IMG/VR virus record: IMGVR_UViG_2778261084_000002
Strand: one strand, 5' to 3'
DNA length: 6,028 bases
From: a virus
Lineage: Duplodnaviria > Heunggongvirae > Uroviricota > Caudoviricetes
Position numbers and translations under genes: made by a program. The notes under the pieces are model-generated. The model saw only the letters and a list, made by a program, of their open reading frames with translations, ran no database searches and was not told the DNA's origin. Shown piece after piece: positions 1-6,028 of this stretch. The stretch's first letter is position 1; each line of letters opens with the position of its first letter.

Positions 1-357
1 CTTGCCGTTCGTGGGGAGTGGCAGGAGCGGAAGATTGCGCAGGTCAGTAAGCCTGCCCCCGCAATTAATATCACACCCGTGGTCCCGGCTCCGCTGCCTC
101 CGGCGCTGGTCCCTGTTGTTGCGGCCAGCTCCCGCCCGGTGGCGGAGGCCATACGATCGCCAGTGGCATCAGTTCCTGCAGCTTCCCGTAATCGGGAGCC
201 GGTTGCCTCCGGATTTGGCGGTGAAATTCATGTTCATCTGCATAACGTTGTTACGCAGAATCCCCGCGAACTTGCGAAACTGGTAGGTGAAATGGTCAGG
301 GCAGAAATGGAACGGCGCGCCCGTGCCGGGCGTGGCAGTTTTTACGATAAAGATTGA
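1..357 (+). CDS. 3' end of a phage tail gene, 5'-truncated by the window edge; Pro/Ala-rich C-terminus lying directly upstream of the gpU-like gene, so possibly a tape-measure (P2 gpT-like) C-terminus
   Basis: Frame 1 is open from base 1 to TGA at 355-357. The mirror copy at 5672..6028 differs in this frame by synonymous changes (ccc/cct, gtc/gtt) and one V/I replacement, whereas the overlapping frame-2 ORF 2..286 accumulates replacements between copies. A GAGGAG Shine-Dalgarno for the next gene sits at 356-361. Product assignment is by gene order only. Confidence 0.45.
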   Translation, partial: LAVRGEWQERKIAQVSKPAPAINITPVVPAPLPPALVPVVAASSRPVAEAIRSPVASVPAASRNREPVASGFGGEIHVHLHNVVTQNPRELAKLVGEMVRAEMERRARAGRGSFYDKD

Positions 358-363
358 GGAGTC

Positions 364-858
364 ATGGCCATGATGATGATCTACGGCATGTTTGTTTTTG
401 AGCTGCGCACATTGCCGCATCAGCAGTTACAGCAAAACAAAAGCTGGCGGCATGTGAAAAATGAACGCGTTAACCGTTCAGCAAGCTGGCAGTATATCGG
501 TGCAGGAGATGATCGCATCGTTCTTTCTGGTGTGCTTTATCCTGAAATTACAGGTGGCGAAGTATCGCTGTCGCTGCTGACCACGCAGGCGTATACAGGA
601 CGACCCTGGCCTCTGATTGATGGCGTCGGGCAGATTTACGGCATGTATGTGCTGACTGAAACGAATACGACCCGTTCCGAGTTTGATCGCTACGGTAAGG
701 CGAAAAAGATAGAATTTTCACTGACCCTTGAACGCTGTGATGAGGATTTGCGGGAGCGCCTGCAATCCTCATCGTTCAGTGATATGCTGTCCGGCTTCAA
801 AGATAAGGTGACATCATCTCTTAACAGCGCGGCCAGTTCAGTTAAAGGGCTGTTCTGA
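364..858 (+). CDS. phage tail protein, P2 gpU-like (164 aa)
   Basis: ATG ORF with GAGGAG at 356-361; alternative in-frame ATGs at 370/373/376 have better spacing. The translation (YGMFVFELRTLPHQ ... IVLSGVLYPEITGG ... RPWPLIDGVGQIYGMYVL ... IEFSLTLERCDE) matches my recollection of the P2 GpU tail protein family. The mirror copy at 5171..5665 differs by 15 nt, 12 of them synonymous. Confidence 0.65.
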   Translation: MAMMMIYGMFVFELRTLPHQQLQQNKSWRHVKNERVNRSASWQYIGAGDDRIVLSGVLYPEITGGEVSLSLLTTQAYTGRPWPLIDGVGQIYGMYVLTETNTTRSEFDRYGKAKKIEFSLTLERCDEDLRERLQSSSFSDMLSGFKDKVTSSLNSAASSVKGLF

Positions 859-866
859 TTTTACAC

Positions 867-898
867 AAAAACCGCTAATGGTCAGATTAGCGGTTTTC
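867..898. terminator. bidirectional rho-independent terminator between convergent gpU-like and invertase genes
   Basis: Perfect hairpin: stem aaccgctaat (870-879), loop ggtcag, stem attagcggtt (886-895), flanked by an A-run upstream and T-run downstream, so U-tracts are available on both strands. The invertase stop codon (887-889, - strand) lies inside the stem. Confidence 0.6.
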
Positions 899-1486
899 AT
901 TTTCCTGAGTCTGCCCGGTTGTTTCTTCAGTCTGTATATCGCCTACAGGGTGATAACGATAAATCGTCGATGTGCCAATGCCGTAAATTATTGCCAGTTG
1001 TTTTCTGTCGTGCCCGTTTTTGATTAGCCTTGCTATTTGCTCATGCTGTTCTTTTGTCAGCTTCGGTCGACGTCCGCCTGTGCGCCCCCTTGCGCGCGCT
1101 GCCGCCAGCCCGGCCAGTGTACGTTCAACAATTAATTCACGTTCCATTTCAGCCAGGGCACCCATCACGTGGAAGAAAAAACGCCCCATTGGAGAAGATG
1201 TGTCTATGCTGTCGGTCAGACTGCGAAAATTAATCCCTCGCTCCCGTAGTTCCCCGACGAGAGAAATCAGATGTTTCATGCTTCGCCCGAGGCGATCCAG
1301 TTTCCAGACAACCAGCGTGTCACCTTTTTGAAGGCGCTTTAAAGCGCGTTTTAATCCCGGTCGGTCTGTCTTTGTCCCGCTTAATTTATCTTCAAATATT
1401 TGTTCACATCCTGCACAAACAAGAGCGTTTCGTTGCAGGTCTGTATTCTGGTCATTTGTTGATACCCTTACATAGCCAATCAGCAC
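887..1486 (-). CDS. site-specific serine DNA invertase, Gin/Pin/Cin/Hin (Din) family, left copy (199 aa from GTG)
   Basis: Translation from GTG (1486-1484) begins (M)LIGYVRVSTNDQNTDLQRNAL with the catalytic Ser in the VRVSTNDQ motif. It has the family's resolvase-type catalytic core (WKLDRLGRS, ERGINFRSLTDSIDTSSPMGRFFFHVMGALAEMEREL) and a C-terminal helix-turn-helix (GIGTSTIYRYHP). A GGGAGA Shine-Dalgarno precedes the GTG. The TTG at 1504 used by the ORF track is probably not the true start. Confidence 0.93.
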   Translation of the reverse strand: MLIGYVRVSTNDQNTDLQRNALVCAGCEQIFEDKLSGTKTDRPGLKRALKRLQKGDTLVVWKLDRLGRSMKHLISLVGELRERGINFRSLTDSIDTSSPMGRFFFHVMGALAEMERELIVERTLAGLAAARARGRTGGRRPKLTKEQHEQIARLIKNGHDRKQLAIIYGIGTSTIYRYHPVGDIQTEETTGQTQENENR

Positions 1487-1540
1487 ACTGAATCTCCCGT
1501 CCAAAAGCGCAAATCATGCCATGCAGGCCAGAAACGGCCA

Positions 1541-1566
1541 TTATTTAAAACCTCGGTTTACAGGAA
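1541..1566. other. left 26-bp invertase crossover site (gix/cix/pix/hix-like), variant form
   Basis: ttatttaaaacc TC ggtttacaggaa: two imperfect 12-bp inverted half-sites around a 2-bp core, at the inner end of the arm and adjacent to the invertase gene. It differs from the right-hand site by TT versus CC at positions 5-6 of the outer half-site and one base in the inner half-site. Confidence 0.8.
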
Positions 1567-1590
1567 ACGGTAAACAGGGCTGGTAACGCC

Positions 1591-2427
1591 GTGCAAAAAA
1601 ATGGCGATACCTTGTCCGGTGGGCTTACTTTTGAAAATGACTCAATCCTTGCCTGGATTCGAAATACTGACTGGGCGAAGATTGGATTTAAAAATGATGC
1701 TGATGGTGACACTGATTCATACATGTGGTTTGAAACAGGCGACAACGGCAATGAATATTTCAAATGGAGAAGCCGCCAGAGCACCACAACAAAAGACCTG
1801 ATGACGCTGAAATGGGATGCACTAAATATTCTGGTAAATGCCGTCATTAATGGCAGTCTTGGAGTTGGTACGACGAATGCGTTAGGTGGTAGCTCTATTG
1901 TTCTTGGTGATAATGACACCGGATTCAAACAGAATGGTGATGGTATTCTGGATGTTTACGCTAATAGTCAGCGAGTATTCCGCTTTCAGAATGGAGTTGC
2001 TATTGCTTTTAAAAATATTCAGGCAGGTGATAGTAAAAAGTTCTCGCTATCCAGCTCTAATACATCCACGAAGAATATTACCTTTAATTTATGGGGTGCT
2101 TCCACCCGTCCAGTGGTTGCAGAGTTAGGCGATGAGGCCGGATGGCATTTCTATAGCCAGCGAAATACAGATAACTCGGTAATATTTGCTGTTAACGGTC
2201 AGATGCAACCCAGCAACTGGGGAAATTTTGATTCCCGCTATGTGAAAGATGTTCGCCTGGGTACGCGAGTTGTTCAATTGATGGCGCGAGGTGGTCGTTA
2301 TGAAAAAGCCGGACACACGATTACCGGATTAAGAATCATTGGTGAAGTAGATGGCGATGATGAAGCCATCTTCAGGCCGATACAAAAATACATCAATGGC
2401 ACATGGTATAACGTTGCGCAGGTGTAA
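1591..2427 (+). CDS. tail-fibre C-terminal (receptor-binding) cassette Sv; reading frame open from 1549 but separated from the arm ATG (1516) by TAA 1546-1548
   Basis: 278 aa from GTG 1591 (frame open from 1549, 292 codons). Gly/Asn/Thr/Ser/Trp-rich composition typical of fibre tips. C-terminus RPIQKYINGTWYNVAQV shares the RPIQ-Y-INGTWYN motif with the opposite cassette. Stop is 3 nt before the tfa ATG. The first ~25 codons inside the segment (NLGLQETVNRAGNAVQKN) parallel the other cassette. No convincing Shine-Dalgarno precedes GTG 1591. Confidence 0.75.
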   Translation: MQKNGDTLSGGLTFENDSILAWIRNTDWAKIGFKNDADGDTDSYMWFETGDNGNEYFKWRSRQSTTTKDLMTLKWDALNILVNAVINGSLGVGTTNALGGSSIVLGDNDTGFKQNGDGILDVYANSQRVFRFQNGVAIAFKNIQAGDSKKFSLSSSNTSTKNITFNLWGASTRPVVAELGDEAGWHFYSQRNTDNSVIFAVNGQMQPSNWGNFDSRYVKDVRLGTRVVQLMARGGRYEKAGHTITGLRIIGEVDGDDEAIFRPIQKYINGTWYNVAQV

Positions 2428-2430
2428 GTT

Positions 2431-2958
2431 ATGCAGCATTTAAAGAACATTAAGTCAGGTAATCCAAAAACAAAAGAGCAATATCAGCTAACAAAGAATT
2501 TTGATGTTATCTGGTTATGGTCCGAAGACGGAAAAAACTGGTATGAGGAAGTGAAGAACTTTCAGCCAGACACAATAAAGATTGTTTACGATGAAAATAA
2601 TATTATTGTCGCTATCACCAGAGATGCCTCAACGCTTAATCCCGAAGGCTTTAGTGTCGTTGAGATTCCAGATATAACAGCCAATCGTCGTGCCGATGAT
2701 TCAGGGAAGTGGATGTTTAAGGACGGAACTGTGGTTAAACGGATTTATACGACAGATGAGCAGCAACAACAGGCAGAATCACAAAAGGCCGCATTGCTTT
2801 CCGAAGCTGAATCAGTCATCCAGCCGCTGGAACGCGCTGTCAGGCTGAATATGGCAACAGACGAGGAACGCACACGACTGGAAGCATGGGAACGTTACAG
2901 TGTTCTGGTCAACCGTGTGGATACGGCAAATCCTGAATGGCCACAAAAGCCTGAATAA
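2431..2958 (+). CDS. tail-fibre assembly protein (Tfa; Mu U / e14 TfaE-like chaperone), 175 aa
   Basis: ATG preceded by AGGTG. N-terminus [24 protein letters not shown]...EDGKNWYEE...FQPDT...[27 protein letters not shown] is the conserved Tfa N-domain, with a divergent C-terminal third. Tightly coupled to the upstream fibre cassette. Confidence 0.9.
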
Positions 2959-2963
2959 AAATT

Positions 2964-2983
2964 AAGGCCCGATAGAGGGCCTT
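2964..2983. terminator. short hairpin between the convergent tfa genes (possible bidirectional terminator)
   Basis: aaggccc (2964-2970), loop gataga, gggcctt (2977-2983), preceded by an A-rich run and lying in the 28-bp gap between the two stop codons. The stem is only 7 bp and the T-tract is weak. Confidence 0.35.
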
Positions 2984-2986
2984 GTC

Positions 2987-3520
2987 TCATTCAGGTTGTT
3001 CGGGAAATGTTACTGGCAGGCTGGAGGTGTCTGTGGATTCGACTTTCTGCGCGTAGAGCATCCACTCGGTTAATTTTTGTTTATTCTCGTCGGAAATGAT
3101 GCCCAGCCGTAGCTGTGAGTCCCATAGCTGGGTTTTATCCCTGACAAGTTGCAACAGGCTTTGCTTTTCATTCTCTGCCTGCTGCCTCTGTTCCTCCTCG
3201 GTATAAGTTCGCTTTATCACTACGCCATCTTTGAACATCCATTTACCCGAAATATCAGCCCGGCGATTTGCTGTAATATCAGGAACCTCAACGACGCTTG
3301 CGCCTTCTGGATTAATTGCTGAAACATCCTTTTCAATACAAATAATAACGTCGTTGTGGTCATAGACCATTTTCAACGTATCAGGCTGAAAGTTCTTTTG
3401 TTCCTCATACCAGTTTTTCCCATCCTCTGTATAAAGCCATTTGATGTTAAATTGTTTCGTTAGCTGGTATTGTTCTTTTGTTTTAGGGTTGCCAGCAGTA
3501 ATATTTTTTAAGTGCATCAT
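2987..3520 (-). CDS. tail-fibre assembly protein Tfa' (second, divergent copy), 177 aa
   Basis: [24 protein letters not shown]...EDGKNWYEE...FQPDT...[30 protein letters not shown]: about 70% identical to the other Tfa over the N-terminal ~105 aa, with an unrelated C-terminus. GGGGAG Shine-Dalgarno upstream; start is 2 nt after the Sv' stop. Confidence 0.9.
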   Translation of the reverse strand: MMHLKNITAGNPKTKEQYQLTKQFNIKWLYTEDGKNWYEEQKNFQPDTLKMVYDHNDVIICIEKDVSAINPEGASVVEVPDITANRRADISGKWMFKDGVVIKRTYTEEEQRQQAENEKQSLLQLVRDKTQLWDSQLRLGIISDENKQKLTEWMLYAQKVESTDTSSLPVTFPEQPE

Positions 3521-3522
3521 AA

Positions 3523-4518
3523 TTAAATACTCCCCGCGTTATACCACGTTCCATTAATGCAATACTGAATTGGCCTTGCCTGAGTTGTATCAATTAATGC
3601 ATCACGGTTTCCGTTAACTGAACCCGTAACGACATAACCTGACCTGTCAGACCAGCCGGGACCATTCCATGTCTGAACAGATGACAGACCGCCAAGGCGA
3701 ATACCTGTAATAAACCTTGAGTTACATTCTGCCTGCGTATATGCACCAACATCTCCCGCAGAGGGTTTGCGGGTCGTGGTGTAAAACTCTGACCAGTCAG
3801 CCTCAAATCCATAACCATCACGCGCTGAACGATAAAAAATACCGCCGTTCCTGTAATTCACGCGGAACTGTACAGCAGGGCAGCTCCCCGTATTCATATT
3901 GAAGTGGAGGATTAATGTCGATGCGCCACCAATATTTGCGTTATAGACCCCGCTATTCCAGTTCCAGCCAACAGCTTTATCATTTCCGACAGTGCTTCCT
4001 GTTTGCCCTAAAGCAAATGCAGGCTGCTGGTTTTTCGTGTTGTAGTCTCGTCGCCAGCCAGGAGCATAAGCATCACCATGATTAATATAGGTGAATTGAG
4101 CGTTAGTAATTCCGCCGCCGCTGGACGTACTCGGCGTAGTAACGCGTATGGTCATTGCGCCGCGAGTGCCAATAACTTCCACCACAGCACCTGCAAGACA
4201 AATATTTCCGCAACCTGTATCTGTAATGACCTTATTATTTGCATAAGCCCATGAGCCTTTGCACATCCAGTAAGGATGGTTAAATGCTCCCTGACTCTCC
4301 AGCCACGAAATAAATTGCGCGGTTGTCCAGACCTGACTATCGCCACCAATATTCAGCCATGAGCTATATGCCCGGCAGGCACCAATATTTTTGGTGAAGG
4401 TATCTTTTCCTGGAATATCTGCACCGTTCTGATTTTTCTGTAATGCGCCAGAAGCCTGATTTACCGTTTCCAGTAAACCGAGGTTTTGGATAATGGCCGT
4501 TTCCGGCCTGCATGGCAT
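3523..4518 (-). CDS. tail-fibre C-terminal (receptor-binding) cassette Sv', 331 aa, currently in frame with an ATG located in the right arm
   Basis: ORF runs from ATG 4518-4516 through the right crossover site into the segment, so MPCRPETAII is arm-encoded and QNLGLLETVNQ... begins within the site. C-terminus RPIQYCINGTWYNAGSI carries the shared motif. No good Shine-Dalgarno precedes the ATG, and an in-frame TGA lies 7 codons upstream, so there is no longer constant N-terminal part. Confidence 0.8.
   Translation of the reverse strand: MPCRPETAIIQNLGLLETVNQASGALQKNQNGADIPGKDTFTKNIGACRAYSSWLNIGGDSQVWTTAQFISWLESQGAFNHPYWMCKGSWAYANNKVITDTGCGNICLAGAVVEVIGTRGAMTIRVTTPSTSSGGGITNAQFTYINHGDAYAPGWRRDYNTKNQQPAFALGQTGSTVGNDKAVGWNWNSGVYNANIGGASTLILHFNMNTGSCPAVQFRVNYRNGGIFYRSARDGYGFEADWSEFYTTTRKPSAGDVGAYTQAECNSRFITGIRLGGLSSVQTWNGPGWSDRSGYVVTGSVNGNRDALIDTTQARPIQYCINGTWYNAGSI
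4466..4494 (+). promoter_or_regulatory. putative sigma70 promoter for the right invertase, overlapping the crossover site
   Basis: -10 candidate GATAAT (4489-4494) with a weak -35 TTTCCA (4467-4472) and 16-bp spacer, ~55 bp upstream of GTG 4548. The mirror position in the left arm (1540..1567, - strand) has AATAAT. Based on sequence inspection only; in characterised Din systems (as I recall for Mu gin and P1 cin) the invertase promoter sits at the adjacent crossover site. Confidence 0.25.
4468..4493. other. right 26-bp invertase crossover site (gix/cix/pix/hix-like), canonical-looking form
   Basis: + strand ttccagtaaaccgaggttttggataa; - strand ttatccaaaacc TC ggtttactggaa. In inverted orientation relative to the left site and 55 bp upstream of the invertase start. 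Confidence 0.8.
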
Positions 4519-4547
4519 GATTTGCGCTTTTGGACGGGAGATTCAGC

Positions 4548-5135
4548 GTGCTGATTGGCTATGTAAGGGTATCAACAAATGACCAGAATACAGACTTGCA
4601 ACGAAACGCTCTTGTTTGTGCAGGATGCGAACAAATATTTGAAGATAAATTAAGCGGGACAAAGACAGACCGACCGGGATTAAAACGCGCTTTAAAGCGC
4701 CTTCAAAAAGGTGACACGCTGGTTGTCTGGAAACTGGATCGCCTCGGGCGAAGCATGAAACATCTGATTTCTCTCGTCGGGGAACTACGGGAGCGAGGGA
4801 TTAATTTTCGCAGTCTGACCGACAGCATAGATACATCTTCTCCAATGGGGCGTTTTTTCTTCCACGTGATGGGTGCCCTAGCTGAAATGGAACGTGAATT
4901 AATTGTTGAACGTACACTGGCCGGACTGGCGGCAGCGCGCGCACGGGGGCGCACAGGCGGACGTCGACCGAAGCTGACAAAAGAACAGCATGAGCAAATA
5001 GCAAGGCTGATTAAAAACGGTCACGACAGAAAACAACTGGCAATAATTTACGGCATTGGTACATCGACGATTTATCGTTACCACCCCGCAGGAGAATCAA
5101 GCGGAACAATAGAGAAGAGTCAGAAAACAAAATAA
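4548..5135 (+). CDS. site-specific serine DNA invertase, Gin/Pin/Cin/Hin (Din) family, right copy (195 aa from GTG)
   Basis: Same core protein as the left copy (12 nucleotide differences, all synonymous, by hand alignment) but a different C-terminal tail after ...IYRYHP (AGESSGTIEKSQKTK versus VGDIQTEETTGQTQENENR). GTG start with GGGAGA Shine-Dalgarno. Confidence 0.93.
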   Translation: MLIGYVRVSTNDQNTDLQRNALVCAGCEQIFEDKLSGTKTDRPGLKRALKRLQKGDTLVVWKLDRLGRSMKHLISLVGELRERGINFRSLTDSIDTSSPMGRFFFHVMGALAEMERELIVERTLAGLAAARARGRTGGRRPKLTKEQHEQIARLIKNGHDRKQLAIIYGIGTSTIYRYHPAGESSGTIEKSQKTK

Positions 5136-5162
5136 CCGCTAATCTGACCATTAGCGGTTTTT
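5134..5162. terminator. bidirectional rho-independent terminator between the invertase and the convergent gpU-like gene
   Basis: aaccgctaat (5134-5143), loop ctgacc, attagcggtt (5150-5159), then TTTTT; A-rich on the other side. Mirror of 867..898. Confidence 0.6.
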
Positions 5163-5170
5163 GTGTTAAA

Positions 5171-5665
5171 TCAGAACAGCCCTTTAACTGAAGTGGCCGC
5201 GCTGTTAAGAGATGATGTCACCTTATCTTTGAAGCCGGACAGCATATCACTGAACGATGAGGATTGCAGGCGCTCCCGCAAATCCTCATCACAGCGTTCA
5301 AGGGTCAGTGAAAACTCTATCTTTTTCGCCTTGCCGTAGCGATCAAACTCGGAGCGGGTCGTACTTGTGTCAGTCAGAACATACATGCCGTAAATCTGCC
5401 CGACGCCATCAATCAGAGGCCAGGGGCGTCCGGTATACGCCTGTGTGGTCAGCAGCGACAGGGACACTTCGCCACCTGTGATTTCAGGATAAAGCACACC
5501 AGAAAGAACGATGCGATCATCACCTGCACCGATATACTGCCAGCTTGCTGAACGGTTAACGCGTTCATTTTTCACATGCCGCCAGCTTTTGTTTTGCTGT
5601 AACTGCTGATGCGGCAATGTGCGCAGCTCAAAAACAAACATGCCGTAGATCATCATCATGGCCAT
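5171..5665 (-). CDS. phage tail protein, P2 gpU-like (164 aa), second copy
   Basis: Mirror of 364..858 with three amino-acid differences (E->D, N->S, S->T) and 12 synonymous changes. Confidence 0.65.
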   Translation of the reverse strand: MAMMMIYGMFVFELRTLPHQQLQQNKSWRHVKNERVNRSASWQYIGAGDDRIVLSGVLYPEITGGEVSLSLLTTQAYTGRPWPLIDGVGQIYGMYVLTDTSTTRSEFDRYGKAKKIEFSLTLERCDEDLRERLQSSSFSDMLSGFKDKVTSSLNSAATSVKGLF

Positions 5666-5671
5666 GACTCC

Positions 5672-6028
5672 TCAATCTTTATCGTAAAAACTGCCACGCC
5701 CGGCACGGGCGCGCCGTTCCATTTCTGCCCTGACCATTTCACCGACCAGTTTCGCCAGTTCGCGGGGATTCTGCGTAATAACGTTATGCAGATGAACATG
5801 AATTTCACCACCAAATCCGGAGGCAACAGGCTCCCGGTTACGGGAAGCTGCAGGAACTGATGCCACTGGCGATCGTATGGCCTCTGCCACCGGGCGGGAG
5901 CTGGCCGCAACAACAGGGACCAGCGCCGGAGGCAGCGGAGCCGGAACCACAGGTGTGATATTAATTGCGGGGGCAGGCTTACTGACCTGCGCAATCTTCC
6001 GCTCCTGCCACTCCCCACGAACGGCAAG
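5672..6028 (-). CDS. 3' end of a phage tail gene (possibly tape-measure C-terminus), second copy, truncated by the window edge
   Basis: Mirror of 1..357; the frame is open to the window edge, with one V/I replacement in the last 92 codons. Confidence 0.45.
   Translation of the reverse strand, partial: LAVRGEWQERKIAQVSKPAPAINITPVVPAPLPPALVPVVAASSRPVAEAIRSPVASVPAASRNREPVASGFGGEIHVHLHNVITQNPRELAKLVGEMVRAEMERRARAGRGSFYDKD

Follow-up and report, generated by a model that had tools for sequence, protein, structure and literature searches.

The analysed stretch of DNA, here called the window (6,028 nt), is one large imperfect inverted repeat. Its arms (positions 1-1602 and 4432-6028) are 95-97% complementary, and its ends are flush, position 1 pairing with position 6028. 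In each arm, the 3' end of a tape-measure gene is followed by a gpU-family tail gene, a hairpin terminator and, convergent with these, a small serine-recombinase gene. The arms enclose an invertible tail-fibre segment, in which the two fibre halves are arranged in mirror order (Table 1). For the allele-specific block, a coordinate x in the left copy converts to 6034 - x in the right copy. An Rfam search of the window gave no match.

Table 1. Features of the window, with coordinates, strand and remarks.
Feature	Position	Strand	Remarks
Tape-measure gene, 3' end, left arm	1-357	+	Mirror copy at 5672-6028 (minus strand); cut at homologous bases
gpU-family tail protein, left arm	364-858	+	PF06995; mirror copy at 5171-5665 (minus strand)
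Two-way intrinsic terminator hairpin, left copy	868-897	.	Between the convergent gpU and invertase genes
Left invertase, 199 aa (annotated start), L-type tail	887-1486	-	ORF; Pfam Resolvase and HTH_7
L-type tail, codons 181-199, VGDIQTEETTGQTQENENR	890-946	-	Stop codon 887-889 inside the terminator stem
Allele-specific block, left-copy coordinates	896-974	.	Haplotype comparison, 9 L and 21 R
Left 26-bp crossover site (gix-like), TTATTTAAAACC-TC-GGTTTACAGGAA	1541-1566	.	Outer half of 'invertase-side' type
Invertible tail-fibre segment, 2.9 kb	1567-4467	.	Bounded by inverted 26-bp crossover sites
Sv, fibre C-terminal part	1591-2427	+	In the invertible segment
Tail-fibre assembly gene	2431-2958	+	In the invertible segment
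Second assembly gene	2987-3520	-	In the invertible segment
S'v, fibre C-terminal part	3523-4518	-	Mirror order to the Sv half
Right 26-bp crossover site, reverse complement TTATCCAAAACC-TC-GGTTTACTGGAA	4468-4493	.	Also of invertase-side type
Right invertase, 195 aa, R-type tail	4548-5135	+	ORF; Pfam; protein identical to the P88 invertase
Allele-specific block, right-copy coordinates	5060-5133	.	Converted from 896-974
R-type tail, codons 181-195, AGESSGTIEKSQKTK	5088-5132	+	Stop codon 5133-5135, overlapping the first two stem bases
Two-way terminator, right copy	5134-5159	.	Counterpart of the left-arm hairpin at 868-897

The two crossover sites differ from one another at three bases (1545-1546 and 1562 on the left versus 4488-4489 and 4472 on the right); the left site has TTATTT in its outer half and ACAGG in its inner half, the right site TTATCC and ACTGG. 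Sites of 26 bp are also found in the Gin/Cin/Pin/Hin group. Identity of the invertible segment is 92-95% with the G segments of Mu and D108 and the P7 C segment, and 89% with the P1 C segment. At the 3' ends of both fibre C-terminal parts there is a 40-nt inverted repeat (2374-2413 and 3537-3576, 78% complementary), which codes for ...INGTWYN... just 5' of each assembly gene.

Both invertases contain a resolvase domain (PF00239, E 1e-50) followed by a helix-turn-helix domain (PF02796, HTH_7, residues 138-180/181). The residue S9 within the YxRVST motif is invariant in an alignment of 51 sequences. Mu Gin (PDB 3uj3 and 4m6f) has the same domain order and aligns over residues 1-183 at E 1e-100; residues 1 to about 125 are nearly identical, with a single K/R difference, whereas the helix-turn-helix domain and the tail of Mu Gin (...STLYKKHPAKR...) differ. 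This change from almost identical to dissimilar sequence, with the Gin-like part located at 1112-1486 (minus strand) and 4548-4922 (plus strand), marks the gene, as judged by its sequence, as a recombination mosaic in which a Gin-like catalytic half is joined to a DNA-binding half of another kind. Because the first 125 or so codons are so close to those of Mu gin, a Fis-dependent enhancer is likely to be present in the 5' part of the invertase gene.

The genetic context of the window invertases is a P2-type tail module, in which they are convergent with gpU, and not that of Mu or P1. Phage P88 (Xuanwuvirus P88, Peduoviridae) has the same gene order, namely tail fibre, invertible segment and invertase, and its invertase is likewise convergent with the gpU and tape-measure genes. 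The right invertase protein is identical to the P88 DNA invertase (AIZ95151.1). P88 and other real loci have one invertase; in the window, two invertases face each other across the segment.

The two invertases are identical in protein sequence through Pro180, and the shared part ends with ...STIYRYHP. An earlier note on this DNA had drawn attention to what follows: after the common ...GIGTSTIYRYHP, the left protein continues with VGDIQTEETTGQTQENENR and the right one with AGESSGTIEKSQKTK, exactly as the translated ORFs read. Global alignment of the arms bore out its description of a divergent island within near-identical flanks. The alignment contains 87 differences, about 23 of which fall in positions 894-947; outside this patch there are about 25 over positions 1-893 (~2.8%) and 12 over 948-1545 (~2%), so that the flanks are 97-98% identical. 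The arms measure 1602 nt (left) and 1597 nt (right), a net difference of 5 nt, as had been noted.

The description of the patch as unalignable was too strong, although the divergence itself is real and pronounced. In a pairwise alignment, the score for the patch was reached by 31 of 2000 shuffled sequences, and a MAFFT alignment together with related sequences yielded 46 patch columns at 59% identity plus eight gap columns. An intermediate tail, VGDTQPGGIIENTQETKNR, found in locus L067, bridges the L and R types. The possibility that one tail is a frameshifted version of the other was considered and discarded; comparison of the reading frames found no such relationship.

The patch borders directly on the terminator, and its A-rich end is the complement of the U-tract that serves the tail operon in this two-way signal. 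In the left copy the TAA stop codon lies within the terminator stem, as observed earlier. In the right copy the stop codon had been said to precede the stem; this is nearly so, with an overlap of two bases. The right stem has 10 pairs and the left one 12 or more; the right one is shorter because the R allele alters the stem-adjacent bases. Two antisense ORFs (878-1027, plus strand, and 5011-5151, minus strand; 49 and 46 aa) were also considered as genes. Both start in the terminator loop, with MVRLAV, and extend back across the tail patch; their products are hydrophobic, as the T/C-rich complement of an A/G-rich tract, and their sequences diverge between the alleles. Their start codons are inside the stem-loop, and inspection by eye revealed no ribosome-binding site. 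They were rejected as a probable effect of base composition.

Both tail alleles are already present in reference collections. Among 5,426 complete Escherichia coli genomes, searches with an 81-nt query for the left patch and a 77-nt query for the right one (at least 80% coverage) identified 518 with the L type and 116 with the R type; almost all matches were 95-100% identical. About 618 of these genomes contain this arm. From the comparison of these numbers, the L and R types make up essentially the whole population, and some genomes carry both alleles. Genes with the context and length of the left copy are annotated in complete genomes as WP_000905061.1, a 600-nt 'recombinase family protein' gene, and those corresponding to the right copy as WP_000905060.1 (588 nt). 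The ST131 strain EC958 carries the L-type allele next to its Phi1 crossover site.

These counts bear on the possibility that one of the tails is a sequencing, assembly or indel error and that the true copies are identical. The A/G-rich composition of the patch is the only point in its favour. Both versions recur in hundreds of independent complete genomes and one of them in an isolated phage, and the difference consists of 19 substitutions plus indels, not of a frameshift within one sequence. Genome counts and the identity with P88 refute an error, to which we assign practically no probability; the tails are genuine, and both are frequent.

The earlier note had regarded the two genes as copies within the arms of one element. 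This did not hold. In P88 and in the complete genomes examined there is one invertase per locus, and on the side away from it the invertible segment is joined to the constant part of the tail-fibre gene; the crossover site on that fibre side has a different outer half (gccgTTATCGAATACC...). None of the 5,426 complete E. coli genomes has the two-invertase arrangement, that is, none has a place covering at least 80% of the window. Instead, complete-genome matches stop at a crossover site, extending over either 1-4497 or 1537-6028. The arms have different closest relatives; the left one is 99.9% identical to strain 19AR1724, the right one 99.9% identical to CT30 and EC12, and the best-match list of neither arm includes the strains of the other. 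The comparison of the two arms is thus one of two alleles from two prophage lineages, not of paralogues that diverged in place.

Each of the two junctions in the window is an ordinary invertase-side junction, one for each orientation of the segment; the left one matches that in L002-L011 and the right one that in L001 and L012. A path that enters through one invertase flank and leaves through another therefore uses only real sequence. The window is most probably a chimeric hairpin join of two related prophages, present in one polylysogen or in a mixed sample, and we infer that the hairpin arose during assembly. The invertase-side flank of one prophage would have been linked, via the shared flip-flopping segment, to the invertase-side flank of the second, and the likely chimeric join accounts for the presence of two alleles in one window. 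In some double lysogens, such as TW10828, two normal loci are present. Two draft contigs contain fold-backs that run into the contig end, with 238-nt arms that are 100% identical (L023) and 584-nt arms that are 98.3% identical (L035). An exact 63-nt pattern from the left arm, sought in viral, metagenome and genome collections, occurred in four related contigs, none of which is a hairpin. The idea that the window ends where prophage homology ends was rejected, as homology runs for at least 3 kb further.

A documented example of the underlying behaviour is the Phi1 prophage of EC958, the crossover sites of which are the same as those of the window save for two inner-half bases (gccaTTATTTAAAACCTCGGTTTAC...) (Forde et al. 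2014, PMC4134206). Inversion of its segment of about 2.8 kb was demonstrated by experiment and observed in sequencing reads; the segment was found with ~50% of reads in each orientation, and gave rise to spurious contigs and to a warning of artefactual duplication (PMC4134206). The EC958 locus has the normal single-invertase layout, unlike the window.

Among IMG/VR draft contigs, L103 (1-1561) ends exactly at the crossover site, and several others (L024, L032, L043 and L054) end at the invertase start, ~55 nt from the crossover site. Such breaks show that the segment often interrupts or misleads short-read assemblies.

The arrangement could instead be real. Two P88-like prophages in the same orientation may have recombined between an invertase-side and a fibre-side crossover site, which would invert the chromosome segment between them and leave one invertible segment between two invertases and another between two tail-fibre constant parts. 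Worked through on paper, this gives exactly the order seen, with junctions at the 26-bp sites; it also suits arms that are 97% and not 100% identical, and which are thus no simple fold-back of one locus, as well as the existence of double lysogens. Gin and Hin require a supercoiled branch and an enhancer bound by Fis; this gives a strong preference to neighbouring sites on the same molecule and weighs against an exchange between two prophages. Such a product is also missing from all 5,426 complete genomes, though some of these apparently carry both alleles. The window ends at homologous bases, as it would if the ends of an assembly path shared a graph node, and the hairpins in draft contigs run into contig ends. 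Action in trans of one prophage's invertase on the sites of another has been proposed for EC958 (PMC4134206).

A further point in favour of real inversion comes from two long draft contigs in which two different invertases face each other across an invertible tail-fibre segment (L058, positions 3877-7600 of a 69.9-kb contig, and L094, positions 208-3050 of an 81.9-kb contig). Their arms are 73-76% identical in DNA and have different tails; the tape-measure genes on both sides are truncated in L058. The contigs may contain genuine composite loci or may be two-prophage chimeras, and in view of them two-invertase arrangements may sometimes be real. For the window, recombination between two such prophages is unlikely, though it is the main rival to the join. 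On this reading, the window would be a true molecule, the product of a large chromosomal inversion of the programmed type between crossover sites of two co-resident P88-like prophages, with one segment driven by two invertase alleles. In that event, the tail dimorphism might matter for two invertases that share, or compete for, one set of sites.

Under the preferred reading, the hairpin join, differences between the copies are population polymorphisms, and the divergence of the tails can be set against that of their surroundings. Over codons 1-180, the left and right genes differ by 12 synonymous and no nonsynonymous changes (dS 0.096); dS is 0.155 for the last 85 codons before the tail and 0.11 for gpU. 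The tail block, with 19 mismatches in 46 aligned columns plus indels, has p = 0.41 and K of about 0.60, an excess over the local synonymous rate with a binomial P of 5e-6. Neutral drift over an equal time would yield far less divergence. Among 30 distinct haplotypes (nine L and 21 R), the L and R types show fixed differences only at positions 896-974, which include the synonymous sites 953 and 974 in the last codons of the helix-turn-helix domain. In the first 13 sequences linkage had seemed to extend to 1202; in the larger sample it extends only to 974. SNPs in gpU, in the tape-measure gene and in the invertase gene beyond 974 are common to both tail types, and tail type was associated neither with gpU or tape-measure haplotypes nor, in other loci, with the TTATTT or TTATCC variant of the crossover-site outer half. 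The suggestion of a locally hypervariable or recombining patch was thereby supported.

Invertase bodies with no more than 79-90% identity, one of them from Salmonella, also bear these tail families; the Salmonella gene matches the left copy perfectly in its final ~150 nt and is diverged upstream. A tail K far above the dS of the gene, fixed differences limited to one block and freely recombining flanks together suggest an old mosaic cassette at a module boundary. The tail difference is ordinary in this respect, being a known kind of allelic mosaic variation in an unconserved gene end. As to which tail is ancestral, the left type is the better candidate because it is commoner and more widely spread, and because its HPVG start is common to two other families.

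Hypervariability generated in place, by slippage in the A/G tract or by a templated diversity-generating system, was weighed against this history. Relatives do show small indels in A-rich runs, namely the loss of 4 nt (TCAG) and single-base changes that move the stop codon. The tails nevertheless fall into a few discrete, internally conserved types and do not form a continuum. Tandem repeats are absent from the window, neither patch has a template or a further copy there, and the ORFs include no reverse transcriptase. Slippage explains some minor variants, such as the 4-nt deletion, and not the main difference between L and R; as the origin of the latter, mutation in place is very improbable.

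What the tails contribute to the protein can be approached from their position. The patch encodes the extreme C-terminus beyond the helix-turn-helix domain, as the earlier note had stated, since HTH_7 ends at residue 180/181. AlphaFold models have helices at 145-156, 161-168 and, as the last, 172-178; the L tail at residues 185-199 and the R tail at residues 184-195 have pLDDT values below 50 and are modelled without secondary structure. In the 51-sequence alignment, P180 is the last nearly invariant column and none beyond it is conserved. Among 120 homologues, the sequence after ...Y-x-x-x-P is between 2 and about 25 residues long, with no common sequence. Close relatives with ...STIYRYHP have at least four tail families, namely L, R, VGTVITQPEM and VEKRQTQ(S/T)EL; the last of these occurs in a P1-like context.

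Several otherwise intact invertase genes among 98 fetched loci carry altered tails. In an R-type variant (L055, L034-L037 and related IMG/VR loci), the 4-nt TCAG deletion leads to the frameshifted tail AGESSGTIEKSKQNNR, which ends ...KSKQNNR at a stop codon inside the terminator stem. Translation in the third frame carries another variant into the terminator loop, where a TGA follows the final ...KKPLI. In L032, the usual terminator is swapped for a different GC-rich hairpin (CCTCCGGCATAGCCGGAGG) directly after the tail; this replacement places a module boundary exactly at the tail end.

Hin has a comparable appendage, likewise a short unconserved extension after the recognition helix. It is reported to be unstructured, to be absent from other invertases and to be deletable without loss of Fis-activated inversion (PMC3798978). 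The window tails, predicted to be disordered, have no sequence similarity to it. The lack of conservation, the predicted disorder, the frameshifted relatives and the Hin precedent together point to little or no sequence constraint on the tail. On this basis, the disordered tail would tolerate substitutions, indels and frameshifts, with the terminator or an upstream TAA supplying the stop codon, and the tail block could therefore have diverged far beyond its surroundings. The block of about 80 bp would sit between two recombination anchors, the helix-turn-helix coding sequence and the terminator, and a discrete old cassette could persist there while homologous recombination shuffles and homogenises both flanks. 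Relaxed constraint and a mosaic history are what we infer from these comparisons.

Some of the same data would fit a functional difference between the tails that is kept by selection; the tails might tune DNA binding or inversion rate, or limit cross-talk between co-resident invertases. The L tail is acidic (net charge of about -4), and the R tail near-neutral. The two alleles are discrete and deeply diverged, each is well conserved within its type, and both are appreciably frequent. The block has diverged 4-6 times as much as local synonymous sites, as would also be expected under diversifying selection. The L tail is almost constant between invertase bodies of 82% identity; only 2 of its 19 residues differ, and both DNA changes are nonsynonymous. 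This near-constancy could mean recent transfer, or else some constraint or function. Selection is harder to reconcile with frameshifted and truncated tails that recur in otherwise intact genes, with a family-wide lack of conservation after P180 and such variable tail length, with the predicted disorder of both tails, with the dispensability of the analogous Hin segment for Fis-activated inversion (PMC3798978), and with the absence of linkage between tail type and the crossover-site outer half. Maintenance of the two tails by selection thus appears improbable.

The most comprehensive reading, which we consider likely as a whole, is that the window holds two common alleles of the single-copy Gin-family invertase gene of P88-like (Xuanwuvirus, P2-type) E. 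coli prophages, that their differing ends are largely unconstrained and belong to a mosaic block, and that a hairpin join has brought them together. The biological weight of the tail difference itself is small; the alleles are catalogued, the enzyme family is well studied, and what varies is a disordered appendage of the gene end. Of more use is the conclusion that the 'element with two invertases' is probably no element. When a near-perfect 6-kb inverted repeat has 'two invertases' around a phage tail-fibre segment, a join across the invertible segment should be the first assumption, ahead of a new kind of element, and a comparison of its arms should be read as one between two prophage lineages. 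The ~80-bp block would illustrate how an unconstrained gene end between conserved recombination anchors can stay deeply dimorphic amid homogenised surroundings.

Variation in these invertases also occurs upstream of the tail. One further allele (P0004, 210 aa) has an in-frame tandem duplication of 11 residues, with GRRPKLTKEQH present twice, between the catalytic and helix-turn-helix domains; it was found in at least three contigs, including L015 (2501-3133) and L016 (1407-2039).
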